A stretch of DNA of 53,478 bases, taken from Minisyncoccota bacterium. GTDB taxonomy: Bacteria; Patescibacteriota; Minisyncoccia; Phycocordibacterales; UBA9973. The notes under the pieces are model-generated. The model was not told the DNA's origin. It worked only from the letters and a program-made list of their open reading frames with translations, and did no database searches. Positions 9,159 through 46,561 of the stretch are shown piece after piece (within the stretch, counting starts at the first letter, position 1; the number at the start of each line of letters is the position of its first letter). Position numbers and translations under genes: made by a program. The DNA is taken from contig JBAZXO010000002.1 in assembly GCA_041659785.1 (NCBI GenBank), positions 1-53,478 of the forward strand, in the 5' to 3' direction.

Positions 9159-10151
9159 ATGCCAGAATTACCAGAAGTCGAAACTACAACGCGAGGCCTA
9201 AGAAAAGCAATTTTAGGCCTAACAATAAAAGACGTGTGGACGGATTTATCAACAAAAGATAAACGTCAAAAGGGGTCCATCGCCAATCCGAAGTTTTTTA
9301 CCATATTTAAAAAAGAAATTTTAAATAAAAAGGTTATATCAGTAGAAAGACGAGCAAAAAATATTTTAATAAATCTTTCCGGAAGCCCACGCCATGTCGG
9401 GGCAAGTAAAACCATACTGATACATTTAAAAATGACTGGGCATCTACTTTATGGAAAATATAAATTTACTCCCTCCCCAAGGCCAGACCTTAAGAATTCA
9501 AAAAGATCTGGCCTTATTAAGGGGTTTTGGACCCCTAATGAATCTGGCCCCCTTCATGACCCCTATAATAGATTTGTGCATGTGGTTTTTACTTTCTCAA
9601 ATAAAAAAAATTTAGCTTTCTCTGATGCTCGAAAATTCGGAAAGATAACTCTTCTTGACCCCGAAGGAAAGAGTACTTCCTACGGGGCAGGTACAAAAAC
9701 TGGCTACCTTGCTCACCTTGGGCCAGAACCACTTGATAGAAACTTTACCTTTGAAAAATTTAAGAAATGCCTGTCCGCCTCTTGGCGGAGGAAAATAAAA
9801 ACTATTTTAATAGACCAGAGCATCATTGCTGGTATTGGAAATATTTATTCTGATGAAATACTCTGGCGAGCTGGTGTACATCCAGAACGAAAAGTTCAAA
9901 AAATTAAAGAAAAAGAATTGAAACTGATATTCAAAGCAATAAAAGAAACATTAACAAAAGGCATAGATTTCGGAGGAGATTCAATGTCAGACTATCGTAA
10001 TATTCATGGTCTACCAGGTAAATTCCAAATACATCATGAAGCCTACAGGCGCACAGGGGAAAAATGCAGAAAACCAAACTGTAAAGGTATCATAAAAAGA
10101 AAAATAGTAAACGGCCGTAGCGCACACTTTTGCTCAGTACATCAGAAATAA
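9159..10151 (+). CDS. mutM: Formamidopyrimidine-DNA glycosylase
   Basis: MPELPEVET N-terminus (start moved to 9159), HLKMTG, DARKFG, AGIGNIYSDE, C-terminal zinc finger. Confidence 0.96.
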   Translation: MPELPEVETTTRGLRKAILGLTIKDVWTDLSTKDKRQKGSIANPKFFTIFKKEILNKKVISVERRAKNILINLSGSPRHVGASKTILIHLKMTGHLLYGKYKFTPSPRPDLKNSKRSGLIKGFWTPNESGPLHDPYNRFVHVVFTFSNKKNLAFSDARKFGKITLLDPEGKSTSYGAGTKTGYLAHLGPEPLDRNFTFEKFKKCLSASWRRKIKTILIDQSIIAGIGNIYSDEILWRAGVHPERKVQKIKEKELKLIFKAIKETLTKGIDFGGDSMSDYRNIHGLPGKFQIHHEAYRRTGEKCRKPNCKGIIKRKIVNGRSAHFCSVHQK

Positions 10152-10260
10152 AAAAGTGAAATATAAAATTTAGAAAGCCTTGCGCAGCCGGGTAGGCGAG
10201 CAGTTCGCTGGCAAAGCTTTGCCAGATAGATTGCTTTATAAATTTTGATATTTTATTTTT

Positions 10261-10734
10261 TTATAATTTACAAATCCTAAATAGAGCTATACCTAACGCA
10301 ACAGAGACATTCAGGGACTCTTTTTGGCCACGCATTGGTATTTCAGCGATGACATCACACTTTTTGAGATTTTCTTTAGAAATGCCAGCTACTTCTTCCC
10401 CCACAAGAAATGCATTTTTGTTTTTTGTTTTTACTTTTTTATAGTCAACTGACTTTTTATCTTGTTCTAAACCAATAATAAAAAAATTGTCCCGCCTTAA
10501 TCTGCGAAAAATGGCGGGCAAGCTTTTTTTAGATTCCCATAATACATATTCTTCTGCGCCTAATGCAGATTTTGCAAAATCCCCTCTCTTTCTGCCGAAA
10601 CGATCCAGCGGTGCTGGTGTGTAACCAGTCAAATAAATTTTATTTATGCCAGCCGCATCCGCAGTACGAAACATCGCGCCTACATTTTCTACGCTTCGTA
10701 TGTTATGAAGTATTAAAATATTTTCTTTTTTCAT
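10261..10734 (-). CDS. TrmH/SpoU family RNA methyltransferase
   Basis: HNIRSVENVGAMFRTADA; IPMRGQKESLNVSVA SPOUT knot. Confidence 0.9.
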   Translation of the reverse strand: MKKENILILHNIRSVENVGAMFRTADAAGINKIYLTGYTPAPLDRFGRKRGDFAKSALGAEEYVLWESKKSLPAIFRRLRRDNFFIIGLEQDKKSVDYKKVKTKNKNAFLVGEEVAGISKENLKKCDVIAEIPMRGQKESLNVSVALGIALFRICKL

Positions 10735-12014
10735 TATTTTAAAAAGTTTCTATTGCGCATGTTTTTATGATAAGCAATAGCGAATCTATGCGCCTCACTG
10801 TTTGCTAATAAAATCTCTCTCTCGTATTTTAAACCAAGATTCTTATCTCCCATAATAGCTTTTGGTTTATGTCGCTCGTCTTTTAATACTGAGACTATTG
10901 GAATATTAATTTTCAAACTAGATAAAACTTTCTTTGTGGCATTTATTTGAGCTATTCCACCATCCACAACTATCAAGCTCGGATAGGTCCATTCTGTATG
11001 CGCCAAACGCCTTTCTAAGACTTCTTTTAATGCTCCTGTGTCGTTTGCATCAATTTGTGTTCTTATTTTAAATTTTTTATATTCATTTTTTGCCACTTCT
11101 CCATCTTCTAAAACTACCATAACACCAACCATATTTTTTCCTCCCATGTGTGCTATGTCGTAGGCTTCAACTCTAAAAGCCTCACCTCTCGTAATTTTTT
11201 CGAGCGAGGAATTCTGCTTGGCAGTACGTAGTGAGAAAAAATTATGAGAGGTGGGGTTTTCTTTTATTAAAGCCACATCATTTATATGCTGTAAGGCAAA
11301 AATTTGTCTTTTAATTTCTCCCGCCTTTTCAAATTCACGCAATTTAGAATATGCATTCATTTCTTTCTTTAAATTTGCTAAAACTTTTTTCTTTTTGCCT
11401 TCAAAAAACAATTTAATGTTTTTAATATTTTGCAAATACAATTTTTTGTCATCTAAATCTGGCACTAAATTTATTTGTTTATAAAATTCAAGATAATTTT
11501 TACTTTTTTCGTCCAAGAACGGGAAAATTCTTCTTACTATTTTTAAAGCCTCTCGAAGTTGTGTTCCACTAGTATATGGTCCGTATATTTTGTTAAACAC
11601 CGAGTGTTTAACATTCCTACCTCTAACAACAATCACTTTCGGTAACTCATTTACGCCATGGCGTAAATATACTTTTGTAATACAAACATAGTTAAAACTC
11701 TTATCCGATTTTTCTTTAGTATTATATTTCGGCTGATATTTTTTAATTAAATTTGCCTCAAGTATCAAAGCTTCAAGTACGCTGTCGGTCTCCTGCCAAT
11801 CAATTCTATCCGCCTTGAAAACCATATCCACAAGAATTGGACCTCTCGTCTCTATTAGATCTTTACCAAAATAACTTTTTACTCTATCTTTGAGTGATGT
11901 AGCTTTACCAATATACAAAATTTCCCCGCCAGCGCGGGCAGGCTTTCCTTTTAAGAAAAAGTACACGCCGGGCTTGTCAGGAAGTTTTACTTTTTTTAAA
12001 GTTTCATTTTTCAT
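10734..12014 (-). CDS. uvrC: Excinuclease ABC subunit C (short form)
   Basis: PGVY..YIGKA GIY-YIG; PKYN; VEAYDIAH and LIVVDGG RNase-H-like domain; ends without HhH motifs. Confidence 0.9.
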   Translation of the reverse strand: MKNETLKKVKLPDKPGVYFFLKGKPARAGGEILYIGKATSLKDRVKSYFGKDLIETRGPILVDMVFKADRIDWQETDSVLEALILEANLIKKYQPKYNTKEKSDKSFNYVCITKVYLRHGVNELPKVIVVRGRNVKHSVFNKIYGPYTSGTQLREALKIVRRIFPFLDEKSKNYLEFYKQINLVPDLDDKKLYLQNIKNIKLFFEGKKKKVLANLKKEMNAYSKLREFEKAGEIKRQIFALQHINDVALIKENPTSHNFFSLRTAKQNSSLEKITRGEAFRVEAYDIAHMGGKNMVGVMVVLEDGEVAKNEYKKFKIRTQIDANDTGALKEVLERRLAHTEWTYPSLIVVDGGIAQINATKKVLSSLKINIPIVSVLKDERHKPKAIMGDKNLGLKYEREILLANSEAHRFAIAYHKNMRNRNFLK

Positions 12015-12075: not shown

Positions 12076-14838
12076 TTATTTTCGTAGTACTTTCTTCAAA
12101 TATCTACCAGTGTACGATTTGTTATTATTAGCTACATCCTCTGGAGTACCTTTAGCTACTATATTACCACCATTTACTCCTCCTTCAGGACCAATATCGA
12201 TGATATAATCTGAACTTTTTACGATATCTAAATTGTGTTCAATAAGTACAACAGTGTTACCCTTAGAAACTAATTTATTTAAAACTTCTAGAAGTTTATG
12301 AACATCATCATAATGCAGACCAACAGTTGGTTCATCTAAAAGGTAAATAGTTTTTTCTAAATGTGGACGATAAAGCTCACTGGATATTTTTACTCGTTGT
12401 GCTTCTCCGCCTGATAAAGTCGTCGCTGACTGCCCTAACTCCAAATATCCTAAACCTACGTCCATAAGAGTTTGCAACCTGTCAGAAATAGCAGGAATAT
12501 CTTTAAAAAAGACTAATCCATTTTCTACGGTCATATGAAGCACTTCATAAATATTTTTTTTCTTATATTTTACGGTGAGTGTTTCTTTATTAAAACGTTT
12601 TCCATTACAAACATCACAAGTAACATAGACGGTGGGCAAGAAATGCATTTCCACGGCTATTTCCCCATTTCCTTCACAAGCTTCACAGCGTCCACCCTTT
12701 ACATTGAAAGAAAAACGATTAGATTTCCACGCCCGGAGCCGTGCTTCTTCGGTCGCTGCGAAAATGTCTCGAATATGAGTAAATGCGCCAGTATAAGTAG
12801 CAACATTAGAGCGTGGAGTTCTGCCGATTGGTGACTGATCAATTAAAATAGCCCGTGATAAATATTCAGTTCCAGAAAATGAAGAGCAATTAAAAACTTT
12901 AGCTGTACGATATTTTCTTTCGTAACGAGCCTGAAGATTTTTATAAAGAATCTCATACATAAAAGAACTTTTTCCAGAACCAGACACTCCGGTGATAGAT
13001 GTCATCACACCGAGGGGTATTTCCACATTTAAATTATTTATATTAAAAATATTTCCACCCGCAATACGCAAGGCTCCCTTCCCCTGTCGTCTCTTTTTAG
13101 GAATTTCTATTTTTGTTTCTTCTCTTAAATAAGAAAGGGTTCGTGAATTATTGGTATTCTTCTTTGCAGTTAATAAATCATCAAGATAACCAGAGACGAT
13201 AACCTCCCCGCCGTGTACTCCAGCTTTATGTCCAATATCTACAATATAGTCTGACGCATAAATAGTGTCTTCGTCGTGTTCTACAATTAAAATAGTATTT
13301 CCTAAATCACGAAGGTTTTGCAAGGTTTTTATAAGTCTATCGTTATCTCGCTGATGGAGCCCTATTGTTGGTTCATCGAGCACATAGAGTGCCCCCACGA
13401 GTCTAGAACCGAGCTGAGAAGCTAAGCGAATACGTTGTGCTTCCCCACCAGAGAGAGTGTTCGCTTTACGTGAAAGCTGAAGGTAATCCAAACCCACATC
13501 GAGCATAAATTGAAGGCGAGCCTCAATCTCCCGTACGACGGGTACAGATATTTCACGTTCTTGTTCTGTAAGTTTAAGATTTTTGAAAAAATCATGCGCA
13601 TCTTTTATGGAAAGTGAAGCAAGGTCTAAAATATTTACTCTACTTTTTTTAAGCTTATTTTTTTCTTTTCCTTTTTCTACTGCAACCTCTGCCTCTAAGA
13701 AAACATTTAAGGCCTCAGGACGCAAGCGCGCGCCATGGCAAGTATCACATGGTTCATCTCCCATAAAATACTTTGAACCAAGACCGTTACAAGTAGGGCA
13801 TGCCCCATAAGGAGAATTGAAAGAAAATAATCTTGGCTCGACTTCTGGAAAAGAAAAGCCGTCATTCTTGCAAGCAAATTTTGATGACATAATAAATTCA
13901 TCATCAGCAATTTTAATAGTTACTAGTCCATCAGATTCAAGAAGTGCACGCTCTAAGGCCTCAGAAAGTCTCATACGGCTCGTCTCAATATCATCTTTAA
14001 ACTCATGGAGGGCATATTGGTCTACTAAAATATCTATATTGTGGGCTTTATTTTTTGAAAGAGTAATTTGCTCTCGCAATTTCTTCATTGTGCCATCAAG
14101 GCGAATTTCAGCAAAACCTTTCCCAAGTAAGTCATAAAGAAGTTGATAATATTCCCCTTTTCGCCCACGAACAACTGGAGAAAAAATACTAATTTCTGTT
14201 TCATCCCACTCAACTCCCATAATTTTTCGTTTACCTTTCTCGAGATTTAAAGAAGAAGAATTCTGCAGCCCGTCGTAGGGCAAGGAATTTTTCTTCTTTA
14301 GGTCTCCACCCTGAGAAGTTAATTTCTTTGTCCTACTACGGCCGTCAGAAATCAACTTCTCATGGTCTCGCATTTTTTCCAAAACAAAATTTAAAATTTC
14401 TTCATTAGAAAGTTTTTTAATTTCTTCTCCACAAATAGGACAGTGTGGGTGCCCAATACGCGCATACATAACACGCAGATAATCATAAATTTCTGTTATC
14501 GTCGCTACTGTAGAGCGAGGATTATTAGAGCGAGATTTTTGATCAATAGATATCGCTGGAGAAAGTCCTGTAATCTCATCCACGTCTGGCTTGGGCATTT
14601 GATTTAAAAATTGTCGCGCATAAGAAGAGAGAGATTCCACATATCTTCTTTGTCCTTCGGCAAAGATAGTGTCGAAGGCAAGAGAGGATTTCCCAGATCC
14701 GGAAACACCAGTAATAACCACCATCTTATTGCGTGGCATTTCTACGTCTATATTCTTTAAGTTATGGGTCCGTGCCCCTTTTACTATTATTTTACTTGCC
14801 CCGCCTTGGCGTGGGTCTACATTTTTCTCTGTTTTCAT
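12076..14838 (-). CDS. uvrA: Excinuclease ABC subunit A
   Basis: [20 protein letters not shown], two LSGGEAQR signatures, Zn modules; start moved to ATG 14838. Confidence 0.97.
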
Positions 14839-14969: not shown

Positions 14970-17216
14970 TTATTTCTTTTCTGATCGAGTTCGTAATACT
15001 CCAATCTCATCTCGCAGGATTGCTGCAGTTTCAAAATCCAATTCTTTTACCGCTTTATTCATCTCTTTCTCTTTCATTTTTATTATTTTTTCATAAATAA
15101 GGTTTCCTATTTCTTCATCAGAAAGATATGATTGTCCTAAACTTGTATTTGGTATTTTATTTTTATTTTTTCTTTCTTTTTTAAACTCTTTCGAGTAAGC
15201 ACGTTTGAATACCTCTAAATCAAGACCAAGCTCTACATTTACAACTTTTCCGTGTTCACTCTCCATTTCTTCCGTAATGTCTTTTATTTTTTTCATTATT
15301 GTTTTGGGAGTAATGCCATGTTTTTTATTGTAAGCAAGCTGAATATTTCTACGACGTTCTGTTTCTTTTAACGCATAATCCATAGCGTCAGTCATGATGT
15401 CTGCATAAAGAATTACTTTACCTTCACTATTACGGGCTGCACGACCGATAGTTTGGATTAAGGACGTTTCTGACCGTAAGAATCCTGCTTTATCAGCATC
15501 GAGAATCCCAATCAGCGCCACTTCAGGCAAATCGAGTCCCTCGCGAAGCAAATTAACACCAACCAAAACATCAAACTCTCCTTTTCGAAACTGAGTGAGG
15601 ATTTTAATTCTTTCTATCGTCTTTATATCGCTATGTAAATATTCGGCTTTTATTTTTTTGCCCTCCTTGGCGGTTAAATCTTTTAAATAAACAGAGAGGT
15701 CTTCTGCCATCTTTTTTGTTAAAGTTGTAGCCAAAACCCTAAAACCTTTGGCAATTGTTTTTTCCGTTTCAGAGATAAAATCTTGAATCTGGCCTGGATA
15801 AGGCAAGTGGGCAAACTTTTGTGAATGGTGACGTTGCGAAGCAGGATCCTGAGCAAAAGATTGGTCACTTGCCTTATTAGCACTCACAGGTCGCACAATT
15901 GTCTCTGGATCAACGAGCCCTGTCGGACGAATGATTTGCTCTACTATTTGCTCACTTTGACTTCGTTCCTGCTCACTAGGAGTCGCACTCGTATAAATAA
16001 CGGGGCCAATACGCTCACTGAATTCTGCATATTTAAGAGGCCTATTATCTTTAGCCGAAGGTAAGCGAAAACCATATTCCACAAGCGTATTTTTGCGTGA
16101 AGCATCTCCTGCATACATTCCGTTTAATTGAGGCAAGGTCACATGTGATTCATCAATAATTGTAAGAAAATCTGGCTCACCTTTTTTATTGCGCGGAAAA
16201 TAAGAAAGAAGTGTCTCTGGGGGTTCTCCTTCTTTTTTACCAGACAAATGTCGAGAATAGTTTTCTATACCATTACAATAACCAACCTCTTTTATCATAG
16301 CTAAATCATAATTCGTTCTTCTTTTTATTCTTTCTGCCTCTAAAAGCTTCCCCATTTTTTCAAATTTCTTTAATTGTATATTTAATTCTTTTTTGATCTC
16401 AACCAGCGCTTTCTTTTTCTTTACATCTTCGGTAATAAAATGTTTAGCTGGGAAAATAAAAATATTATCCTCTTCTTTAATTATTCGAGAAGAAACTGGG
16501 TCAATTTTTGTTATTTTTACTAAGGTCGGACCTTCGTTTTTACGAAAGTCGGACCTTTTTTCTTCAAATTCTATTTGATATACAACTGTTTCTGAAACTG
16601 GCATAAATTCTACCCTTGAACCAATAAACCTAAACTGTCCAGGATTCAAATCTGCATTGGTGCGTTCAAAATGAATACCAATTAATCTTTTCATTAAACT
16701 CATACGATCCAATTTCATTCCTAACTCAAGTTTTAAATTTACTTTTTCATATTCTTCTGGAGAGCCTAAACCATAAATACAAGAAACAGAAGCAACGATA
16801 ATAACATCTCTTCTCGTTAGAAGCGCCTGGGTGGAGGCATGACGAAGCATATCTATCTCTTTATTTATAGAAGCATCTTTTTCTATATAAGTATCGGAAG
16901 CAGGCATATAGGCCTCTGGCTGATAATAATCATAATAAGAAACAAAATAGTGTACCGCAGATTCTGGAAAAAATTGTTTAAATTCTTGGGCGAGTTGCGC
17001 GGCCAATGTTTTATTATGCGCAATTACAAGTGTTGGTTTATTATACTGTGTAATCACATTCGCCATTGTAAAAGTCTTCCCTGTGCCAGTAGCTCCAAGC
17101 AAGGTCTGCTTCTTCATACCTTTTTCAAGCCCACCCACAAGCTCAGAAATAGCCACCGGCTGATCTCCAGCAGGCTCGAAAGGATTATGTAATTTAAAAA
17201 TACTTTTTTCCAACAT
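14970..17216 (-). CDS. uvrB: Excinuclease ABC subunit B
   Basis: PAGDQP, GATGTGKT, YYDYYQPEAY beta-hairpin, DESH, GRAARN, C-terminal UVR motif. Confidence 0.97.
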   Translation of the reverse strand: MLEKSIFKLHNPFEPAGDQPVAISELVGGLEKGMKKQTLLGATGTGKTFTMANVITQYNKPTLVIAHNKTLAAQLAQEFKQFFPESAVHYFVSYYDYYQPEAYMPASDTYIEKDASINKEIDMLRHASTQALLTRRDVIIVASVSCIYGLGSPEEYEKVNLKLELGMKLDRMSLMKRLIGIHFERTNADLNPGQFRFIGSRVEFMPVSETVVYQIEFEEKRSDFRKNEGPTLVKITKIDPVSSRIIKEEDNIFIFPAKHFITEDVKKKKALVEIKKELNIQLKKFEKMGKLLEAERIKRRTNYDLAMIKEVGYCNGIENYSRHLSGKKEGEPPETLLSYFPRNKKGEPDFLTIIDESHVTLPQLNGMYAGDASRKNTLVEYGFRLPSAKDNRPLKYAEFSERIGPVIYTSATPSEQERSQSEQIVEQIIRPTGLVDPETIVRPVSANKASDQSFAQDPASQRHHSQKFAHLPYPGQIQDFISETEKTIAKGFRVLATTLTKKMAEDLSVYLKDLTAKEGKKIKAEYLHSDIKTIERIKILTQFRKGEFDVLVGVNLLREGLDLPEVALIGILDADKAGFLRSETSLIQTIGRAARNSEGKVILYADIMTDAMDYALKETERRRNIQLAYNKKHGITPKTIMKKIKDITEEMESEHGKVVNVELGLDLEVFKRAYSKEFKKERKNKNKIPNTSLGQSYLSDEEIGNLIYEKIIKMKEKEMNKAVKELDFETAAILRDEIGVLRTRSEKK

Positions 17217-17439
17217 AAACACTCTTTTATAATTATTTATTTTCTGTTAAATAACCATAATCAGTATTATCATATGCTTTTATTACAATAAAATAAGCTA
17301 AAGCAGAACTTACTATTGTAAAGATAAGAAAATATACTAATGTTACTCTAAGGTCTCGCATGCTTATACTCTAGCATTTTTCTTGATTTTTCACCTTATT
17401 TACTATATATTTAAATAGTTTTCTGTTATAAAAATACAT

Positions 17440-19220: not shown

Positions 19221-21647
19221 TTACTTCACTTCTCCTAAATTATCTCCAGAACCAGAATGCACCAAAAGAGGAATATCATCTTTATAATGTAAATATGATC
19301 TAAAAAGAGCATCTTCCATAGCGTTTTTTATTATTTTGTCAGCTTTTTCTAATATTTTTTCTTCAGTTTCGTAAACTAATTCATCGTGGATTTGGAGCAC
19401 TAAATGAACCTTATCTAATAGTCCTGCTTTTTTTAAATCCTCTTCTGTATATCTTATGGCTAGTTTTATAATATCAGCAGCCGTACCTTGGAGAGAGGCA
19501 TTTGTTGCTGTACGTTCAGCCATATTTTTAAGAAATGGAATTCTAGAATTAATATTAGGGAAATATCGCCTACGGCCAAACAATGTTTCTGTGTAAGAAT
19601 TTTTCTTGGCAAATTCTTTAACACTTTCTAAATAATCTCTGACACCAGAAAATTGATTAAAATAATTATCATAAAATTTTTGAGCTTCCTCACGAGTGCC
19701 TCCGAGATTTTTCCGCAAAGCAGATACTCCCATACCATAAATAATACCGAAGTTTATCACCTTGGCCTTGCGACGCATCTCACTATCTACTTTTTCTATA
19801 GGAACACCAAAGACAAACGAGGCTACCCCAGCATGAGCATCTTTTCTATCACGGAATATCTGAGTCATCTTTTTGTCTTTGGACAACATGGCGGCTACTC
19901 GCAATTCAATTTGGCTGTAATCAAAAGCTGCGAGCTTATAACCTTTTGGAGCTACAAAACCATCTCGAATTTTTCTTCCTAGTTCTGTTTTTATTGGTAA
20001 ATTTTGTAAATTAGGATCTTGAGAAGAAAATCTACCCGTAGTCGTACCATTTTGCAAGAATTTAGCGTGCAGGCGTCCGTCTTCTCTTGCCATTTTAGGA
20101 ATTACATCAATGTAAGTTGAAAGCAACTTCTGTAATTCTCGATAAGCTAATATTTCTTTTATAATTGGATTATTTTCTTCTAATTCTTCTAGAACAGAAA
20201 CTTTAGTAGAAAAAGACCCACTAGCATTTTTCTTTTTTCCACTTCTCATCCCCATTTTACCAAAAAGAACTTCTCCCAATTGTTTAGGGGAATTGATATT
20301 AAATTCCACTCCGGCCTGTTCGTATATTTTTTTAGTTAATTTGTCTAACTCTATATGGTATTCTTTTGATAATTTTTCAAAATACTTTTTATCTATTAAA
20401 ATTCCATGATCTTCCATCTCTTTCACTACAGAAATAATGGGCTTTTCTATTTCTTCATATATTTTATCAAGTTTTTGTTCTTTTAATTTTTTAAAAATGT
20501 ATTCATAAGCTACATCAAAAGAGTCTGTATTAGCAAATATCAAAATGTCTTCTAGTTGAGGGTTTGATATATCGGAATTAATTAACCACAAAGCAATACT
20601 AGCTTCTTGTAGTTTTTCAGGGGAAATTTGAGAAAGCAAAGTTTTCTCGGGTCCTCGGTTCTCTGGGTCCCCTACCCCAGCCAGACCAGCTCCAAAACTT
20701 TCTTTCTCAAATTTCCCCTTCTCATTATTTCCAAAGAAATTTTTTAACCGCCCAAACAAACTACGAAACTCAAATTTCACAAAAACCTGCTCTATTTTTT
20801 TTAAATCCGCATTCTCCCAAAAAGTTTTTTCAGGCATTTCAAAATTTATTGGCGCATCAGTTCGTATAGTCGCTAAAGTTTTAGAGAACAAAGCTTCTTC
20901 CTCGTTATTTTTTAATAACTCAATCATTCTAGGGCTTATGCCAGCTTTCGAAAAAGCCCCTTCATCCTTTTTAATTTTTTTATATATTTCTTCTATTGTT
21001 CCAAAATTTACAATTAATATTTCAGCAGTTTTTTCCCCTATTCCCTTGATACCGATAATATTATCTGAGGGATCACCACGTAAACCTTTATAATCTGGTA
21101 AAAATTTTGGTTTAAAATGAAATCTTTTAACGACAGCATCTTCATCATATAAAATGGTGTCATTGATTCCTTTTTTTAATGTATAAACTCGCACTTTTTT
21201 ATCATCCACTAATTGCATCGTATCCATATCTCCTGACGCAATGATAATATTTAAATTTTTATCTTTCTTGAATTTTTCGACAATTGTTCCCAAAACGTCG
21301 TCAGCTTCGAAGCCTTTCGCATCATAAATGGGGATATTAAAACCTTCAAAAATCTGCCGAGAATTTTTCAGCTGCACGATAAGAGCATCTTCAGTTTTTG
21401 CCCGTCCAGCTTTATATCCCTCATAGGCATCATGCCTAAAAGTTTTGTGGGGCAAATCATAACAGGCAACGATATAGTCTGGCTTTAATTCAGTAATTAT
21501 TTTCATTAGCATACTCGAAAGTCCGTAGAGGGCGCCCGTAGGTTCACCCGAAGATGACAAAAACTCAGGCAAAGCATGATATGCACGATGAATGATGGCG
21601 TGGGAATCTAATAATACTAATGTTTTTTTATTCTCTTCTTTTGGCAT
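19221..21647 (-). CDS. polA: DNA polymerase I
   Basis: LVLLDSHAIIHRAYHA 5'-nuclease, GDPSDNIIGIKGIG, FNINSPKQL, TGRFSSQDPNLQN, DYSQIELR, QIHDEL; start moved to ATG 21647. Confidence 0.97.
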   Translation of the reverse strand: MPKEENKKTLVLLDSHAIIHRAYHALPEFLSSSGEPTGALYGLSSMLMKIITELKPDYIVACYDLPHKTFRHDAYEGYKAGRAKTEDALIVQLKNSRQIFEGFNIPIYDAKGFEADDVLGTIVEKFKKDKNLNIIIASGDMDTMQLVDDKKVRVYTLKKGINDTILYDEDAVVKRFHFKPKFLPDYKGLRGDPSDNIIGIKGIGEKTAEILIVNFGTIEEIYKKIKKDEGAFSKAGISPRMIELLKNNEEEALFSKTLATIRTDAPINFEMPEKTFWENADLKKIEQVFVKFEFRSLFGRLKNFFGNNEKGKFEKESFGAGLAGVGDPENRGPEKTLLSQISPEKLQEASIALWLINSDISNPQLEDILIFANTDSFDVAYEYIFKKLKEQKLDKIYEEIEKPIISVVKEMEDHGILIDKKYFEKLSKEYHIELDKLTKKIYEQAGVEFNINSPKQLGEVLFGKMGMRSGKKKNASGSFSTKVSVLEELEENNPIIKEILAYRELQKLLSTYIDVIPKMAREDGRLHAKFLQNGTTTGRFSSQDPNLQNLPIKTELGRKIRDGFVAPKGYKLAAFDYSQIELRVAAMLSKDKKMTQIFRDRKDAHAGVASFVFGVPIEKVDSEMRRKAKVINFGIIYGMGVSALRKNLGGTREEAQKFYDNYFNQFSGVRDYLESVKEFAKKNSYTETLFGRRRYFPNINSRIPFLKNMAERTATNASLQGTAADIIKLAIRYTEEDLKKAGLLDKVHLVLQIHDELVYETEEKILEKADKIIKNAMEDALFRSYLHYKDDIPLLVHSGSGDNLGEVK

Positions 21648-30579: not shown

Positions 30580-31677
30580 TTATCTATTCATTGGCATTAT
30601 AAGATAAGTAAAAGAAGGGTCAGAAACAGCTGATATGACGATGGGGCGAGAAGCACCAGATAATTTTATAGAAACACTGTCAGTATTTATTGACTGAAAA
30701 CAGTCTAGGAAATATTTATAATTAAAGCCTAACTCAACATTTTCCCCTTTTATCACAGAATCTAAGTATGTTTTATTTTCTCCAACATCATTATTAGAAG
30801 AAGAAAGCTCAAAAACTTTTTCTTTAGCTGAAACTTTCAAATTAACCTGATTAAATTTATCAGAAAAAATATTTGAGAGTTTTAATGCATTTAATAAATC
30901 TTGTTTCAAAACCACCACCTCGGTTGAAGAATCTTTAGGTATAATTTGCTTATAGTCTGGAAAAATTCCATCAATAATGCGTGATGTTAAGTAAGTATTA
31001 TCAGACGAGAAAGAAATTTGGTTTTTATTAAAACATACCTTTATAACACCCTTAACTTCTCCAAAAACTTTTAATATTTCTGCTATGTTTTTATAAGGTA
31101 TAAGAATACCGGAAATTTCTTCAAGGTCTTTTACTTTAATTTTCTTTTCTGCTAAACGAAAAGAATCCGTGGAGACAAAAACTAAATTATTGTCGTGGGT
31201 ATATATAAAAACACTTGAAATTTCAGGCTTTATATCAGAAACAGAGGAACTATAGTAAACGGATTTTATACCATCAATTAGTTTGGTTGATTCTATTTCA
31301 AAATTATTTCCAGTAACCAATGGTATTGTTGGAAAATCCTCATGTGGTTGACTTTTTAACCTTATTTGGCTTTTTTTAGTTTTAATTAATAAATTTTCAT
31401 CCTTACTTTCAAAAGAAACATTTTCGTTTTGAGAAACATTAGAAAAAACAGCGTTCAATATTGATCCAGAAATAGCCAAGGTTCCTTCTTTTTCTACTTT
31501 TGCAGGAATTTCAATCTCAATACCAAGACTTAAATTTGTTGATCTAAGTTTTAGTGAGTTTTTGGAAGCAATCAATAAAATTGAATTTAAAATAGGCAAA
31601 GTTAAATTTTTACCAGTTATTCTCTCTACTTGAGAAATTGCATTTTTTATTTTTTCTATTGAGCATTCTGTCTTCAT
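30580..31677 (-). CDS. dnaN: DNA polymerase III beta sliding clamp
   Basis: LPILNSILL, STNLSLGI, DFPTIP, STDSFRLA, FPDYKQIIP, YLIMPM. Confidence 0.97.
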   Translation of the reverse strand: MKTECSIEKIKNAISQVERITGKNLTLPILNSILLIASKNSLKLRSTNLSLGIEIEIPAKVEKEGTLAISGSILNAVFSNVSQNENVSFESKDENLLIKTKKSQIRLKSQPHEDFPTIPLVTGNNFEIESTKLIDGIKSVYYSSSVSDIKPEISSVFIYTHDNNLVFVSTDSFRLAEKKIKVKDLEEISGILIPYKNIAEILKVFGEVKGVIKVCFNKNQISFSSDNTYLTSRIIDGIFPDYKQIIPKDSSTEVVVLKQDLLNALKLSNIFSDKFNQVNLKVSAKEKVFELSSSNNDVGENKTYLDSVIKGENVELGFNYKYFLDCFQSINTDSVSIKLSGASRPIVISAVSDPSFTYLIMPMNR

Positions 31678-31915
31678 ATGTTTGTTTATATCTTCTATAT
31701 ATAATTTATTAATAATATTAGTTCTGTTGATAAGTGGATAAGTTTTTTTAATATTGTTTTGTAATACTTTTTTGGTTTTTTAATTTATTTTAAAACTTAA
31801 TAACTTTTTTTAATTTATTTTAATTATTTTTTATTATTATAAACTTCTTTTTTATAAATCTTTACTAACTTCCCCCACACTACTTATTAATTCTTTCTTA
31901 ACTTATTATTAACAG
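31678..31915. other. Candidate oriC (dnaA-dnaN intergenic)
   Basis: Extremely AT-rich; overlapping DnaA-box variants TGTTGATAA (31725-33) and AGTGGATAA (31733-41). Confidence 0.6.
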
Positions 31916-33256
31916 CTATTTAAACATAATTCTTATTTGTTCTAATTCTTGAATTAACTGCGAATCATTTTTTAAATCAGCTTTAATCTTTACACATGAG
32001 TGCATCACTGTGGTGTGGTCCTTCCCTCCTAGTTTTTGTCCTATTAAAGGATAAGACACACTAAAGTCCTCCCGGAGTAGATACATTATTATTTGTCGGG
32101 CTTTTACTATTTCTTTTTTTCTAGTTTTTTCATAAACAGATGCTTCTTCTAGTTTATAATAATCTGCCACAATTTTTACAACATCTTTAATCGCCATATT
32201 CTTTTTAGGCTTCATGTTGTTTTTTAGAAGGTTTTTTACTTCCAAAAGCGTAGGAGCTTTATTTTTCAAGCGATATTGGCAAACAATGAGGTTTAAGCTT
32301 CCCTCAAGCTCCCTGATATTTCCTTGCATTGCGCCAGCAACATACTCAACTAAGTCGTCCTCTAAAACAATATTAAGCTCTCGAAGCTTAACCTTTATAA
32401 TCGCGAGCCTGGACTCATATTCTGGTTCAGAGATATCGACTATCATTCCTGCAGCAAAGCGTGATTTAAGGCGGTCTGCGAGCTCTGGGATGTAGTTAGG
32501 GTGCTTATCAGAAGAAAAAATAATTTGCTTATTGTTTTCATAAAAAGTATTAAACGTATGGAAAAGTTCTTCTTGAATTTTTTCCATTTTTCCTATGAAC
32601 TGTATGTCGTCTATGATTAGAAGATCATATTTTCTATATTTTTCTTTAAAAGAGTTTGCTTTATTGCTTTGAAGTGAATTAATAAAGTCAGTTGCAAACT
32701 TTTCTAGGGTCATATAATGCACCTTTTTATCAGGATATTTGTCTTTTATTGAATTTCCTACTGCTTGGATCAAGTGAGTCTTCCCTAAACCAGTGCCTCC
32801 ATAAATAAAAAATGGATTGTATTTAGTTCCAGGAGACTCGATGATTGCTTGAGATGCCGCATAAGCGAGTTCGTTGAAGGCTCCGACGATAAAAGAGTTG
32901 AATTGGTACCTTGGGTTGAGGTTGTCTCCTGGATTTATATACAAATCCCTTAAAGGCAGCTCTTTTTCTACGGTTTCGTTTATTGTGATAATTTCTTGTT
33001 TAGGATTTTCTATTTTTGTAATGGTATATTCCACAGCCCGCATGTTTTCATAGGCTTCTGCTATGGTTTTAGTTATGAGTTTGTGGTATTTGTTCATGAG
33101 CCAGTCACGTACAAATTCGTTTGGGACGCCAATATAAATAATACCAGTTTCCTCTTTAACAATAGAGGTATTTTTGAACCAGGTGCTGAAGTTTGCTTTT
33201 GACATTCCTGCTTCAATCTTCAATAAACAATTTTTCCACAACTGTTTCGTATTCAT
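31916..33256 (-). CDS. dnaA: Chromosomal replication initiator DnaA
   Basis: LNPRYQFNSF, YNPFFIYGGTGLGKTHL, LIIDDIQF, RLKSRF, GGKDHTTVMH. Confidence 0.98.
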   Translation of the reverse strand: MNTKQLWKNCLLKIEAGMSKANFSTWFKNTSIVKEETGIIYIGVPNEFVRDWLMNKYHKLITKTIAEAYENMRAVEYTITKIENPKQEIITINETVEKELPLRDLYINPGDNLNPRYQFNSFIVGAFNELAYAASQAIIESPGTKYNPFFIYGGTGLGKTHLIQAVGNSIKDKYPDKKVHYMTLEKFATDFINSLQSNKANSFKEKYRKYDLLIIDDIQFIGKMEKIQEELFHTFNTFYENNKQIIFSSDKHPNYIPELADRLKSRFAAGMIVDISEPEYESRLAIIKVKLRELNIVLEDDLVEYVAGAMQGNIRELEGSLNLIVCQYRLKNKAPTLLEVKNLLKNNMKPKKNMAIKDVVKIVADYYKLEEASVYEKTRKKEIVKARQIIMYLLREDFSVSYPLIGQKLGGKDHTTVMHSCVKIKADLKNDSQLIQELEQIRIMFK

Positions 33257-33311
33257 AGTTTCATATTATACTATTTCTAAAATAGAAGACACTTTTAAGT
33301 CTTATTAACTC

Positions 33312-33331
33312 TGTTGATAAGCTGTGGATAA
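33312..33331. promoter_or_regulatory. DnaA-box pair upstream of dnaA
   Basis: TGTTGATAA (33312-20) and perfect TGTGGATAA (33323-31). Confidence 0.75.
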
Positions 33332-33336
33332 AAAAG

Positions 33337-33388
33337 CCTCTCCCCCAGCCCCTCTCCTTAGTAAGGAGAGGGGAGGTTTGGGGTGGGA
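33337..33388. repeat. Palindromic mini-element, CCCCTCTCC/GGAGAGGGG family
   Basis: CCCCTCTCCTT-agt-AAGGAGAGGGG with C-rich and G-rich flanks. Confidence 0.8.
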
Positions 33389-33454
33389 CCCGAATCTCGA
33401 AGGCCGGATGAGGTGAATTTGATTTATTGTTGGTTTTATTATAGACTTTATTAT

Positions 33455-33589
33455 ATGTCACAAACATACCAACCTAAAAAGAGAAAAAGAGCCCGAGCCC
33501 ATGGGTTTTTGGTTAGATCAAGAATAAAGACTGGTAAAAAGGTCTTAAAAAGAAGACGCCAAAAAGGTAGGGCTAAACTTTCAGTTTAA
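33455..33589 (+). CDS. rpmH: 50S ribosomal protein L34
   Basis: [18 protein letters not shown]...RRRQKGR; start moved to ATG 33455. Confidence 0.96.
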
Positions 33590-33668
33590 GTTATCAAGTT
33601 TGTAATGTTGAAAGTTTTTAAAGTAATAATTAATCTTTATGAACTTTATAACTTTTTACTTTATAACT
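33588..33668 (+). repeat. 8/9-nt repeat element, both arms, no cargo (rpmH-rnpA)
   Basis: AAGT-type arm 33588-33624; ACTT-type arm 33635-33668. Confidence 0.8.
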
Positions 33669-33675
33669 ATTAAGT

Positions 33676-34050
33676 ATGCTTCCTAAAAAAAATAGGGCCG
33701 ATAAAAAGGCAGTAGAAAAAATCTTTAAAGAAGGTAAGTTTGTTAATTCTCCAAACTTAACTTTTAAATTTGTAATACGCGGAGAAAATGATTTTCTTAT
33801 GAGCAACACAGAAGCCAGCTACTCATTGCGAAAATCATTTTCTCCGCGTGTTTCTGTTGTTGTGCCTAAAAGTGTAGCCAAGCTCGCAGTAAAAAGGAAT
33901 TCCCTAAGAAGACTTTTATATTCTATACTTATAAAATATATAAAAGATTTACCAGTTTCTCTTGTGGGTGTTTTTATTTTTAAAAAAGCAGAAAATGACG
34001 TCACAATTCTTGAAAATGAAATTAAAACAATATTCAATAAAATTCGTTAA
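33676..34050 (+). CDS. rnpA: Ribonuclease P protein component with in-frame palindromic insertion
   Basis: MLPKKNR, PRVSVVVPKSVAKLAVKRNSLRR (RNR motif); position rpmH-rnpA-yidD-yidC. Confidence 0.92.
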   Translation: MLPKKNRADKKAVEKIFKEGKFVNSPNLTFKFVIRGENDFLMSNTEASYSLRKSFSPRVSVVVPKSVAKLAVKRNSLRRLLYSILIKYIKDLPVSLVGVFIFKKAENDVTILENEIKTIFNKIR

Positions 34051-34231
34051 TTTTTACCAGAAATATATTTCTATTTTTACAAAACCAAACTGTGTTTTTT
34101 ATCCTACCTGTTCAGAATATACCAAACAAGCTATAGAAAAATATGGAACACTAAAAGGAATTTATTTAGGATTTTTACGTATTTTACGTTGTCATCCATG
34201 GCAAAAAAAACACATTGATCCCCTACTTTGA
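34016..34231 (+). CDS. yidD: Membrane protein insertion efficiency factor YidD
   Basis: YQKYIS, CVFYPTCSEY, RILRCHPW; start taken at ATG 34016. Confidence 0.93.
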   Translation: MKLKQYSIKFVNFYQKYISIFTKPNCVFYPTCSEYTKQAIEKYGTLKGIYLGFLRILRCHPWQKKHIDPLL

Positions 34232-34261
34232 TTTTTTGTTGTTTTAATATAGAATGGGGTA

Positions 34262-34987
34262 ATGCTTTCAAGTATTTGGAATATCGTTCTATATCATCCA
34301 TTATTAAACGCCCTAGCTTTTTTGGTATCTATTATACCTGGTGGGGACGTTGGTATTGCTGTTATAGTCCTCACTATCCTTGTTAAAATCATCCTCTTTC
34401 CTTTATCTCAGAAATCCATAGAAAGTCAGGCGGAGATGAATATTTTGACTCCTGAGATTAATAAAATCAAAACGAGCGGTGCTTCTAAAGAAGAGCAAGC
34501 ACGTCTTACTTTCGAACTTTATAAAAAACACAACACAAATCCATTTTCAGGATGTCTTTTAGTCTTAATTCAGATCCCTGTTATCTTCGCTTTGTATTAT
34601 GTATTTCTAAAAGGAATAAAATTTGACGGAGTCTTGTACTCTTTTATTCACGTACCCGCTCATGTAAATATGATTTTCCTTGGTTTTCTTGATATAACTC
34701 AAAAGAGCTTAGTATTAGCAATTTTGGCTGGTGTTTCTCAATATCTACAAGCACACTATATGCCTAAGCCTCCCACCCCTGCCCCAGGTGCCAGTGCTTC
34801 TTTCGCTGATAGCTTTACAAAGAGTATGAGCATGCAAATGAAATATATTTTCCCATTTATTATTGCTTTTATTGCTTACAGCATTTCTGGTGCTGTCGCT
34901 TTGTATTGGATTACCAGCAATCTTTTTATGGTGGGTCAACAGATTTATGTTAAAAGAGAGAAGAATTTTAAAATAGTTATAAAGTAA
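34262..34987 (+). CDS. yidC: Membrane protein insertase YidC (short, Oxa1-like)
   Basis: LTILVKIILFPL, LYKKHNTNPFSGCL..LIQIPV, ALYWITSNLF. Confidence 0.95.
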   Translation: MLSSIWNIVLYHPLLNALAFLVSIIPGGDVGIAVIVLTILVKIILFPLSQKSIESQAEMNILTPEINKIKTSGASKEEQARLTFELYKKHNTNPFSGCLLVLIQIPVIFALYYVFLKGIKFDGVLYSFIHVPAHVNMIFLGFLDITQKSLVLAILAGVSQYLQAHYMPKPPTPAPGASASFADSFTKSMSMQMKYIFPFIIAFIAYSISGAVALYWITSNLFMVGQQIYVKREKNFKIVIK

Positions 34988-35008
34988 AAAGTTATAAAGT
35001 TCATAAAG
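34975..35008 (+). repeat. 8/9-nt repeat element, solo 5' arm (yidC-jag)
   Basis: AGTTATAAAGTAAAAAGTTATAAAGTTCATAAAG spans the yidC stop. Confidence 0.8.
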
Positions 35009-35013
35009 AATTT

Positions 35014-35496
35014 ATGAAAAAGGAAGAGATTCAAAATTTAATAAAAGAATTAATAGAGAAAACCACAGTAAAATTAAACGAAATTTCAGTTGTTGAAGAT
35101 GGCCCTAAAAATTTATGGGTTTCTCTGGAGGTGAATGAACCACATTTTTTTATTTCACGCGAGGGTGAAGGCTTGCATGCTTTGAGTCATCTTGTGCATC
35201 GAATTATTGAATCAAAGTCTTCTCCAAAATCTGGATTAGGAGAAAGAAATGAATCAGGCTTAGGAATTATCATAGATGTAAATGGTTTTCAAAAGAAACA
35301 CGTCGAGAGTATCCGTGCCATAGCTCACATGATGTCTGAAAGAGCACGATATTTTAAATCTAATATAGAAGTTGACCCAATGTCTGCTTTTGAACGCAGA
35401 ATTGTTCATGAGTTTTTATCTGATGCAAGTGACCTCAAAACTGAATCCATGGGTATGGGGCGCGATCGTCGTGTTGTTATTAAATACATTGGCTAA
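35014..35496 (+). CDS. jag: Jag/KhpB-like KH-R3H RNA-binding protein
   Basis: ISREGEGLHAL KH-like motif, IDVNGF, PMSAFERRIVH R3H motif; follows yidC. Confidence 0.88.
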   Translation: MKKEEIQNLIKELIEKTTVKLNEISVVEDGPKNLWVSLEVNEPHFFISREGEGLHALSHLVHRIIESKSSPKSGLGERNESGLGIIIDVNGFQKKHVESIRAIAHMMSERARYFKSNIEVDPMSAFERRIVHEFLSDASDLKTESMGMGRDRRVVIKYIG

Positions 35497-35511
35497 AATA
35501 TATAGGTCTAA

Positions 35512-35583
35512 ACCTCACCCCGTCTCGCAAGCGAGCCACCCCTCTCCATTTTAGAAAATGGAGAGGGGAAAAAGGGGTGAGGT
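35512..35583. repeat. Palindromic mini-element, CCCCTCTCC/GGAGAGGGG family
   Basis: CCCCTCTCCATTTT/AAAATGGAGAGGGG stem; 35516-35544 is the exact reverse complement of 50159-50187 inside rsmA. Confidence 0.85.
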
Positions 35584-35587
35584 GCAT

Positions 35588-36982
35588 TTATTTTAATCCT
35601 AACTCCCACAAGAAAGAATCTTTTTTGTTTACAAAAAATAGGTAATTTTCTCCATCATCCAATGCAAGTTTAATGCTGTCTGTGTCTTGTCCTCCTTGCA
35701 CAGTTACTGGGTCTGCAATTATTGTGGCATTTCCAGTTTTAATATCTATTTTCCAAATTTGATCTGAGAAAGAAACTTCTCCTTGATACCAAGTATCTGG
35801 ATAGCTCCCCGCGTTAATATTTTTAGGTACTCCGCAATAAGCAGTGTCACTTGTTTTATTCCAGACACATTTTTCTGGTAAAGTTTTCACTCCGAGTGGG
35901 TCTGTTGTTTTTGTGTCTGTGTGATAAACATTGAGAAATAAATTATTATCACTATATAGAACTAATTTTCCACTAGGACTTGTTAGTGTGGTGAGTCCAT
36001 TTATACCTCCTAATACTTTGGTTAAATTTTTATTAGTTGGATCCATCATATACATATATCCTTGTACGCTAGAGGCGGGCTTAGTGGTGAAGGTAATCAT
36101 TTTACTATTGGGCCACCAAGATAACCATTCTGTAAATGCTGAACTGAAAACTTGAACTTTCTTATTAGTTGCGAAGTTTAGAGTCGTCCCTATCATATTA
36201 TCTCCAGAGTTAAATAAATAGAATAAACTTCCAGCATCAGAAGACAGGCTTACATCTTTTATATCATCAGGTAAGAATGTTCCCTTTACTTCATTGCTGC
36301 TCGTTGTGTCTGCGCCCAATATTTCTTTAGGAAGATTACCAACAAAAGTAGCAATTGTTTTAGCATCCCCTTTTAAATATCTCATTATCACCGAGCCTCC
36401 ATTGTTGCCAAAGAAAACTTCGTATATTTTAGGAATTATTGTTATGGAAAATTTCTGTTCGAGGATTCTGTCTGCAAAAGTTTGATAGATGTTTCCCGTA
36501 GCTCTCTCTACGTATCTCAATGCAGGCATAAATTCAGTTGGTGGAGCAATTGGTTTTACTAAAGTCTTTTTTAGACCCCCCGCACCCCCCTTAGCAGGGG
36601 GGACAGGATTAGCTCCCTCTCCTGATAAGGGGAGGCTGGGAGGGGTTGTATTGTTTGGTGTTACTACAGGGACATCTTTTAATCTTTCTTTAGAAAATAC
36701 AGTAAATCCAGCTATAGGCATACTAGAAATTTTTCTTAATTTTACTAGTAAGTCTGGATTTGTGGGAGTTGGTTCATATCCAGAAACATCTACTGGAGGA
36801 GTAACTGCTGGAGTTACTGGTTTGTTGTTATTTCCAAATGGATTAAATTGGGAACCAAAATTTGTGCCACCCGTGTCAACGCCCAGTGTGCCTGTTGGTT
36901 GCTGTAAATATAAAAATCCAAATACCCCAACTACAACGATGGCTAGAATGATTATTAAAAGTATAAAGTTTCTTTTTGACAT
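35588..36982 (-). CDS. Membrane-anchored exported protein, possible beta-propeller
   Basis: N-terminal TM, Pro-rich linker, repeated S.D/W.P strand motifs; carries a palindromic insertion at 36576-36645. Confidence 0.6.
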   Translation of the reverse strand: MSKRNFILLIIILAIVVVGVFGFLYLQQPTGTLGVDTGGTNFGSQFNPFGNNNKPVTPAVTPPVDVSGYEPTPTNPDLLVKLRKISSMPIAGFTVFSKERLKDVPVVTPNNTTPPSLPLSGEGANPVPPAKGGAGGLKKTLVKPIAPPTEFMPALRYVERATGNIYQTFADRILEQKFSITIIPKIYEVFFGNNGGSVIMRYLKGDAKTIATFVGNLPKEILGADTTSSNEVKGTFLPDDIKDVSLSSDAGSLFYLFNSGDNMIGTTLNFATNKKVQVFSSAFTEWLSWWPNSKMITFTTKPASSVQGYMYMMDPTNKNLTKVLGGINGLTTLTSPSGKLVLYSDNNLFLNVYHTDTKTTDPLGVKTLPEKCVWNKTSDTAYCGVPKNINAGSYPDTWYQGEVSFSDQIWKIDIKTGNATIIADPVTVQGGQDTDSIKLALDDGENYLFFVNKKDSFLWELGLK

Positions 36983-37001
36983 ATTGTTTTAATTTTATTT
37001 A

Positions 37002-38243: not shown

Positions 38244-38244
38244 T

Positions 38245-39234: not shown

Positions 39235-39254
39235 ACACTCTAATTATATCATAT

Positions 39255-39292
39255 CTACTTTATAAACTTGATAACTTTAAACTTTATAACTC
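39255..39292 (-). repeat. 8/9-nt repeat element, solo 5' arm (after virB4)
   Basis: - strand GAGTTATAAAGTTTAAAGTTATCAAGTTTATAAAGTAG. Confidence 0.8.
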
Positions 39293-39311
39293 CCAAATAA
39301 AACCTATGTTT

Positions 39312-41159: not shown

Positions 41160-41167
41160 TTTTTTAT

Positions 41168-41209
41168 CTTTACTTTATAAACCTTACAACTTTACAAACT
41201 TTATAACTA
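41168..41209 (-). repeat. 8/9-nt repeat element, solo 5' arm (before virB4)
   Basis: - strand TAGTTATAAAGTTTGTAAAGTTGTAAGGTTTATAAAGTAAAG. Confidence 0.8.
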
Positions 41210-41848: not shown

Positions 41849-41850
41849 AC

Positions 41851-42404: not shown

Positions 42405-42408
42405 GGAT

Positions 42409-42847: not shown

Positions 42848-42859
42848 ATTAAGTCCTTC

Positions 42860-43483: not shown

Positions 43484-43516
43484 AAATTTATTATTAAGCT
43501 AATAATTTTTTAATGA

Positions 43517-46525: not shown

Positions 46526-46561
46526 TTTTGTTTTGAAACTTTGCTACTCTTCTTTCTGTTT

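Follow-up and report, generated by a model that had tools for sequence, protein, structure and literature searches.

A short hairpin-forming element, here called family B, occurs twice in the stretch of DNA analyzed (contig JBAZXO010000002.1 of the Minisyncoccota bacterium assembly GCA_041659785.1, positions 1 to 53,478, 53,478 nt in all; hereafter the window), once within uvrB and once, in the opposite orientation, within pcrA. Further copies are found in frame in housekeeping genes of related bacteria, where the same site can be empty, filled in the reverse orientation, or occupied by another core. Family B is probably a low-copy, non-coding, selfish hairpin element of Paceibacteria that resembles the Rickettsia palindromic elements (RPEs), has a loop that can be exchanged and inverted, and persists as in-frame inserts in tolerant loops.

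The initial annotation had called attention to a 25-mer shared by the two genes in opposite orientations, and this match holds and extends further. Positions 15822-15846 of the + strand (TGAATGGTGACGTTGCGAAGCAGGA) and the reverse complement of 53308-53332 (TGAACGGTGACGTTGCGAAGCAGGA) are identical at 24 of 25 nt, and the ungapped match between 15817-15847 (+) and 53307-53337 (-) covers 29 of 31 nt (94%). If a 2-nt indel is allowed (GGAT-CCTGA versus GGATATCCTGA), the alignment runs on through CCTGA, in agreement with the similarity into TCCTGA that had been described. The 20-mer GGTGACGTTGCGAAGCAGGA occurs exactly twice in the window. The expectation from 100 shuffles is 0.00, which rules out a chance match between the uvrB and pcrA stretches. 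The first copy lies in uvrB (14970-17222, - strand, 750 aa; UvrB structures matched at E = 2.6e-219). The second lies in the gene for a PcrA/UvrD-type helicase (52392 to beyond 53478, - strand; PcrA 1pjr matched at E = 8e-58), of which the 361 C-terminal codons are present before the window ends. Since both open reading frames (ORFs) are on the - strand, one DNA is predicted to be read as ...SFAQDPASQRHHSQKF... / FAQDPASQRHHSQKF in UvrB and as ...FLNGDVAKQDILKK... in PcrA.

Both peptides lie in segments that are longer than in orthologues and do not align to them without gaps, as had been suspected. In UvrB, residues ~448-473 (about 27 extra aa) have no counterpart in solved UvrB structures, and the phmmer alignment to 9gy7_E is interrupted between chain residues 428 and 426. 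Nineteen of the 119 closest UvrB homologues possess a short linker, VSEKGxYKGQ, instead. In an AlphaFold model of UvrB of moderate confidence (mean predicted local distance difference test score, pLDDT, of 62), the insert (447-473) has a pLDDT below 50 and no regular secondary structure, and it is placed between a strand (440-444) and a helix (478-491). Compared with 1pjr, PcrA is longer by about 46 residues, which lie between KILEIM and LKKNITDFADIAILYR. In a correction to the initial annotation, this extra segment of pcrA consists of two separate elements, the shared core plus its arms at 53277-53354 and another hairpin at 53364-53428.

Each copy of family B forms a complete hairpin. In uvrB it covers 15798-15877, with the core-forward strand being + and thus antisense to the gene (nhmmer 15816-15858, E = 1e-13). 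Its arms, ATAAGGCAAGTGGGCAAACTTTTG and CAAAAGATTGGTCACTTGCCTTAT (15798-15821 and 15854-15877), are 24 nt long, 88% complementary, and separated by 32 nt. Shell and core occupy about 15816-15859 and read CTTTTG TGAATGGTGACGTTGCGAAGCAGGATCCTGAG CAAAAG, with the predicted reading NKASDQSFAQDPASQRHHSQKFAHLPY. The single-stranded DNA (ssDNA) fold has an energy of -19.4 kcal/mol (z = -5.0), which was equaled by 0 of 200 shuffles. In pcrA the hairpin covers 53277-53354, with the core-forward strand being - and sense to the gene (nhmmer 53337-53293, E = 8e-15). The arms AGCGAAGTCGGTAATATTTTTTT and AAAAAATTATTACCGACTTCGCT (53277-53299 and 53332-53354) are complementary at 22 of 23 positions (an internal inverted repeat of 23 nt, 95.7%), and the core at 53293-53337 has the predicted reading KSEVGNNFLNGDVAKQDILKKNITDFA. 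The shared stretch is thus not itself the palindromic element of the initial annotation and is no palindrome; it is a conserved loop, and the arms around it differ from locus to locus.

The unit of family B has three layers. The invariant centre, GGTGACGTTGCGAAGCAGGAT, contains the d(GCGAAGC) mini-hairpin. It is enclosed by a shell, TTTT(G/T)(C/T)GAA(T/C)GG ... CC(T/C)GAG(C/A)AAAA, and this in turn by locus-specific arms of about 10-23 nt. The consensus is (C/T)TTTT(G/T)(C/T)GAA(T/C)GGTGACGTTGCGAAGCAGGAT(0-3 A/T)CC(T/C)GAG(C/A)AAAA(G/A), with a conserved core of 44-47 nt. Nothing is conserved at the termini beyond a 5-7-nt A/T shell.

The second hairpin in the extra segment of pcrA (53364-53428, + strand, core GAATGGTCTGGGGATTTTTTCCGAGGACCTGAG; part of a fold with z = -4.1) belongs to another family, A. 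It has the same outer shell as family B (CTTTTTCGAATGGT ... GGACCTGAGAAAAAG) around another centre, and its predicted reading is GDAFSQVLGKNPQTIRKS. The core of family A is also found with other arms in the relatives L024 (ksgA), L037 (pcrA), and L046 (uvrB site). The A module precedes B in the window and follows it in L037. Both families occur in the same lineage. They have a conserved core, a shared shell, and locus-specific complementary arms, and both lie in frame in housekeeping genes (pcrA, ksgA, and uvrB). The outer 12-16 nt on each side, CTTTT(T/G)nGAAYGGT ... GGA(T)CCTGArnAAAAG, are common to them. Because the centres differ (CTGGGGATTTTTTCCGA in A versus GACGTTGCGAAGCA in B, the latter with the GCGAAGC mini-hairpin), B is a sister family of A and not the same repeat. 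The shared shell would provide a simple route for swapping centres by short-homology conversion.

A 19-mer of the core was used to search 185,579 species genomes (596 Gb). Of the 19 matches, nine are in metagenome-assembled genomes (MAGs) of Paceibacterota, Nomurabacteria, or 'Saccharibacteria', and each of these has the entire 44-47-nt core. The remaining ten, all outside the candidate phyla radiation (CPR), had no extended similarity. About four matches were estimated to be expected by chance, hence these ten were taken as chance matches. A shifted and partly degenerate 20-mer matched 25 metagenome contigs, with at least 15 CPR-type loci having the full core, including the part of it that was not demanded by the 20-mer. 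An nhmmer profile run over all sequences that were fetched added diverged copies (L045, L047, and L050) and found only two copies of B in the window. Once duplicates were removed, 24 distinct copies were present, with two in the 53 kb analyzed here and two to four seen per related MAG. The copy number of B thus seems low. Each of the 24 copies is within the long ORF of a housekeeping gene. Nine gene families serve as hosts: uvrB, pcrA (two sites), ksgA/rsmA, mnmA, leuS (two sites), purH, pheT, tsaD, and cca (CCA-adding enzyme). It is therefore a dispersed repeat rather than a coincidence, and since all copies are in open frames, the proposed RPE-like, in-frame read-through in housekeeping proteins appears to be right. 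The assemblies that contain B come from Rifle, Hainich, OW334, a mine-drainage study, and others. The window has no match at the gathering threshold of Rfam 15 except two tRNAs, and 15780-15900 has none at E <= 1. No phage or viral contig had B; the one match, of 19 nt in a mycobacteriophage, is ascribed to chance. A literature search found no paper on such elements in Patescibacteria, which is no proof that none exists.

Depending on the length variant, four or five frames of the B core are free of stops. In 13 of 15 site-orientations, the two most hydrophilic frames are used, F(L/S/V)NGDVAKQD... and FAQ(D/E)(Y)PASQRHHSQK. The other two use the frame ILLRNVT. This preference suggests filtering at the protein level.

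At orthologous sites, B may be present, absent, or reversed in relatives, and this demonstrates turnover. The DNA of six homologues was compared at the uvrB site. P0001 and P0002 have B in the orientation of the window. In P0003, which is 80% identical over residues 380-560, the whole interior is inverted, that is, the core together with the imperfect inner arms, and in the outer 11 bp, which pair perfectly, an A-T to G-C compensation is seen. Recombination between inverted arms would give this outcome. The window and L045 differ by an inversion of the core together with the imperfect inner arms. P0006 has homologous arms, with a double compensation from AA/TT to TC/GA, around an A-type core. 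In L046, homologous arms enclose an A-type core. The site in P0038 is empty. When the UvrB linker is followed through the 119 homologues, it is filled in 100 of them, with at least 10 insert families, and is empty in 19. Contigs of run X1 cover the uvrB site identically to the window (record 6, 560 nt, 0 differences). The runs, covered as short assembled contigs from a multi-strain community, contain the allele of the window and many related strains, but neither an inverted nor an empty version of the allele of this strain. In a relative from run X3, a different groundwater metagenome, the 86-nt hairpin region of uvrB (15803-15888) is replaced by 20 other bases (TCTTCCCACTCGCAGAAACC), which makes it a short-linker allele.

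Both orientations of the core at one site were found among relatives in five genes: uvrB, pcrA (L011 versus the rest), ksgA (L006 versus L037), cca (L021 versus L027), and mnmA. In the mnmA pair, L004 and L043, the arms are homologous and the core is of the same rare variant. In the pcrA linker, modules A, B, and C form a mosaic, with the order differing among genomes. The relative L031 (Ga0209542_10017925) has two B copies in pcrA, in opposite orientations at two different sites; its PcrA of 1136 codons also has an apparent intein-like insertion (CLIKGTKIKMADGS...IVTHNC) in the helicase core. Across genomes, the ksgA loop can contain B reversed (L006), B forward (L037), A (L024), C and B (L025), or nothing. 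In the window, the ksgA site is unoccupied by B (50513-50549, - strand; AGCGAAACGTTTCCAAGTTTTTCGAAAACATTTCACT, SETFPSFSKTFH) and forms a quasi-palindrome in which 10 of 12 arm positions pair. At its centre is TTTTTCGAAAA, which looks like both shell ends of B fused, and the site could therefore be either a preferred target or the footprint of a lost core.

Beyond the shell, no sequence is shared among the flanks of the 24 copies, and still the two flanks of a copy pair. Pairing is found in 78% of cells versus 58% with shuffled partners (reached in 0 of 500 shuffles), the covariation score is 0.50 versus 0.19, and 16 of 22 column pairs in the arms vary on both sides. When the partner is slid by 1-3 columns, pairing is at most 54%, and left arms matched with right arms of other copies give a far lower score. 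A gapless pairing count misaligns bulged copies, and duplex energies and column counts were used instead. Within the core, GA(A/G)TGG covaries with CC(T/C)GA at three independent gene sites (L004/L022 mnmA, L034 purH, and L043 mnmA). No target-site duplications were found, as direct repeats of at least 4 nt flank 8% of the copies versus 6.5% of cross-paired controls. An inverted duplication of the flank at insertion fits only in part as the sole source of the arms. In pcrA, the right arm extends over some codons that align to residues native to a relative, and in ksgA about 11 nt beside the core resemble an inverted copy of the left flank. Ongoing conversion is needed too, because arms at orthologous sites vary in length and sequence.

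The hairpin also has a polarity. The core-forward strand gives the more stable arms in 18 copies versus 5 (p = 0.001), in 16 versus 5 if the shell is left out (p = 0.002), and in 9 versus 3 if one copy per site is counted (p = 0.013). The bias is present both where the core is sense to the gene (7:3) and where it is antisense (9:2), so the asymmetry follows the core and not the mRNA. Mismatches of the G-T type number 37, and those of the A-C type 19. The sequence d(GCGAAGC) is the canonical, extraordinarily stable and nuclease-resistant DNA mini-hairpin and is known from priming sites of ssDNA replicons (PMC13037366). The complement of GCGAAGC does not fit the mini-hairpin motif. Mini-hairpin and polarity together point to an ssDNA form of fixed polarity, in a sample that is small and partly non-independent. 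Conservation is likewise seen at the nucleotide level. In seven pcrA genes, the 50 codons past the insert are 95% identical in protein and 55% identical at third positions of identical residues, while the 20 core nucleotides not demanded by the search are 93% identical. The core is therefore either kept by selection on the nucleic acid or continually refreshed by copying.

A selfish element of the type described in the opening paragraph could persist as follows. The core would spread, or be refreshed, by copying between hairpins, either through gene conversion or loop replacement via the shared shell or through an enzyme acting on ssDNA hairpins. Template-switch (quasi-palindrome) conversion, which has been proposed for the coding palindromes of nematomorph mitochondria (PMC6649704), may keep the arms complementary and extend them into native flanking codons. 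Flips could arise through recombination between the inverted arms, and selection on the host proteins would remove every copy that is not in one of the two hydrophilic frames and in a disordered surface loop. A benefit to the host would not be required. The initial annotation had proposed an RPE-like element that is active in this lineage. The likeness to RPEs in consequences is supported, and turnover between relatives was seen; active mobility is an inference, and the window has no gene for a mobilizing enzyme.

Several points weigh against a selfish element. A copy number as low as that of B seems unusual for selfish repeats. Neither a transposase nor a homing nuclease is present among the 47 ORFs of the window, where UvrC alone has a GIY-YIG domain. 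Because exact 19-20-mers were used to find the 24 copies, the conservation of the centre is partly a matter of ascertainment. Read-through of the copies is judged from their open frames. Many copies are orthologous, and the statistics on polarity and covariation rest on about 14 independent sites. The ksgA site of the window may be a footprint and not a virgin target. No insertion event was caught between near-identical genomes; all comparisons of filled and empty sites are between species, and gain and loss are therefore indistinguishable.

A more specific version of the proposal is possible, though rather doubtful. The units may be hairpin cassettes, that is, long-lived, gene-specific coding hairpins whose invertible cores of fixed polarity, tipped by d(GCGAAGC), would move as ssDNA by replacing the loops of existing hairpins and not by cut-and-paste into naive DNA. 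The forward strand might then double as a priming or initiation signal. We know of no bacterial repeat for which mobility by loop replacement has been described.

Three other explanations address what the core is for or how it moves. It is unlikely that the core is a functional cis signal of the host, such as an ssDNA initiation or priming site, a site for a DNA-handling protein, or an uptake or segregation sequence, with hairpin and polarity selected for that function and the intragenic location due to a lack of intergenic space. Such a signal would agree with the nucleotide conservation of the core far above synonymous expectation, the hairpin of fixed polarity, the low copy number, and the occurrence of d(GCGAAGC) in priming and replication-initiation sites of ssDNA phages and in ssiA (PMC13037366). 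The two copies of the window also have equal polarity relative to a putative origin near 33.5 kb, but n = 2 and the origin was not confirmed by GC skew. Close relatives, however, have nothing or unrelated families at the same site, and flips at one site between relatives would reverse any polarity related to replication. Many unrelated cores of the same architecture are also present in the window. Just as improbable is an ordinary non-autonomous transposon, either a repetitive extragenic palindrome (REP) or the REP-derived hairpin known as a REPIN, moved by a REP-associated tyrosine transposase (RAYT; Y1 HUH), or a miniature inverted-repeat transposable element (MITE) moved by an insertion sequence (IS) transposase encoded elsewhere. 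A strand-polar hairpin is what Y1 transposases recognize, as is established for IS200/IS605 and RAYTs. The arms of B are locus-specific, though, in contrast to the conserved ends of REPs, REPINs, and MITEs, and neither the frequency of flanking repeats given above nor the purely intragenic location, the low copy number, and the lack of a transposase in the window would be expected of such a transposon. That the inserts are ancient and immobile, with the core conserved because the encoded peptide matters to the host proteins, appears very improbable. In its favour, nearly all sampled relatives have B in the pcrA linker, and the peptides NGDVAKQDIL and PASQRHHSQK are conserved. Against this, different genes read one and the same DNA in three frames and on both strands, the core is conserved at its synonymous positions as well, the UvrB segment is predicted to be disordered, and the sites are polymorphic between relatives.

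Finally, the match could be an artefact of assembly or binning, with chimeric joins at a shared repeat, since the groundwater metagenome behind the window is complex and contains many related strains. This is scarcely credible. Independent assemblies, made in different studies and from different sites, have the same elements at matching gene positions, and these independent origins exclude an assembly artefact; moreover, the run X1 contigs cover the uvrB site without differences, and the reading frames are intact. A selfish, RPE-like hairpin element remains the preferred reading.

The closest of the known systems are the RPEs. In the summary of Ogata et al. (2000) given in PMC10969869, they are about 100-150 bp long and fall into ten families (RPE-1 to RPE-10); 44 were found in R. 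conorii, with nearly half in ORFs. B, too, is a hairpin repeat of a small, AT-rich genome, lies in frame in unrelated housekeeping genes, and appears to be read through. As in that summary, there are several families per genome and no known transposase. In RPEs as summarized there, the whole element, including the arms, is conserved, while in B only the 44-47-nt core is and the arms belong to each locus. B also flips in place, shares sites and arms with other cores, and has its hosts in the Patescibacteria. By these defining features, and not by a sequence comparison to an RPE consensus, B is set apart and is not an RPE.

REPs and REPINs are likewise short imperfect palindromes that form ssDNA hairpins with a polarity and are non-autonomous (PMC3116915, PMC2817692). 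They differ in being extragenic, in having tens to hundreds of copies, and in their conserved stem and 5' tetranucleotide (PMC3116915, PMC2817692), whereas B is intragenic and low-copy with locus-specific stems, and no RAYT gene is present in the window. MITEs are small, non-autonomous, and sometimes intragenic with in-frame fusions, but they have conserved terminal inverted repeats and target-site duplications (PMC10969869), and B has neither. By its defining features, B is neither a REP/REPIN nor a MITE. The nematomorph coding palindromes are inverted repeats in translated sequence whose arms stay complementary while evolving and which are gained or lost between species; they share no loop between genes, and both arms encode conserved protein (PMC6649704). 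The arms of B, in contrast, enclose a conserved, dispersed core and lie in non-conserved loops. The GC clusters of yeast mitochondria are GC-rich, palindromic, mobile clusters in a very AT-rich genome, and one of them is optional and in frame in var1. They differ from B in being organellar and eukaryotic and in their sequence and flanks, and no long locus-specific arms are described for them.

Other hairpins of the window have the same architecture. They are found at 33774-33852 (rnpA), 20619-20719 (polA), 14242-14306 and 14308-14366 (both uvrA), and 10150-10261, with AT-rich, locus-specific arms of 20-29 nt and a GC-richer core of 19-54 nt. The first four are within essential genes. In uvrC, a hairpin at 11176-11260 has AT-rich arms of 26 nt and a 33-nt core, and the reverse complement of this core, TCACTACGTACTGCCAAGCAGAATTCCTCGCTC, is module C (SNFFSLRTAKRNSSLEKIE), which was also found in pcrA and ksgA inserts of relatives. 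A GC-rich nested palindrome lies in frame in ksgA (NSPLEEYPLGGGGISTPSRKRATPQEGN, 50147-50231). It has a 29-nt perfect inverted match to an intergenic copy after jag (35516-35544, within 35504-35551), and its peptide family fills the UvrB linker in seven homologues (P0013, P0018, P0052, P0061, P0067, P0105, and P0107). Another shared GC-rich insert family is indicated by a 31-nt inverted match (87%), CCCACGCCATGTCGGGGCAAGTAAAACCATA, between mutM (9386-9416) and the 5' end of uvrA (14785-14815). Hairpin inserts are present in uvrA, uvrB, uvrC, mutM, polA, pcrA, ksgA, and rnpA of this one window, and the design of a GC-richer core within locus-specific arms is general in this genome.

The surroundings of the two B copies were also explored. 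A cluster of dnaN, dnaA, (rpmH) rnpA, yidC, and jag at 30580-35496 suggests an oriC near 33.3-33.7 kb. The two copies flank the dnaA-dnaN / rnpA-yidC region on opposite sides and in opposite orientation, and thus have the same polarity relative to the putative origin near 33.5 kb. The GC skew goes with the orientation of the genes and is no confirmation of the origin, so no claim about replication polarity is made. An AT-rich repeat, CTTTATRAACTTTAYAACT, is present at operon junctions (24761, 33635, 39258, 41173, 41190, and 42812), with inverted partners at 34972, 41851, and 42410, and a perfect 38-nt inverted pair (33634-33671 and 34972-35009) brackets rnpA-yidC. The block of co-directional genes at 35588-49833 includes those for a type IV secretion system pilin with a fused SLT domain, for a TraG/VirB4-like ATPase, for PrgI, and for large proteins that have no Pfam match. 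A gene for a four-helix protein of the type found in 23S rRNA intervening sequences is located at 42460-42807.

To our knowledge, in-frame selfish palindromes have so far been regarded as a peculiarity of Rickettsia. A very large and poorly known group of bacteria here shows the same outcome at high density, and with an unconventional design: it is the loop that is conserved, each locus has stems of its own that co-evolve, the interior can invert in place, and the families exchange cores. The lengths and alignments of CPR housekeeping proteins are inflated by non-homologous inserts at recurrent hot spots, which bears on phylogenomics, structure prediction, and annotation. These genes also allow the maintenance of hairpins within coding DNA, by template switching or conversion, to be studied in a natural setting, and they open the search for a possibly new, hairpin-directed mechanism of mobilization.

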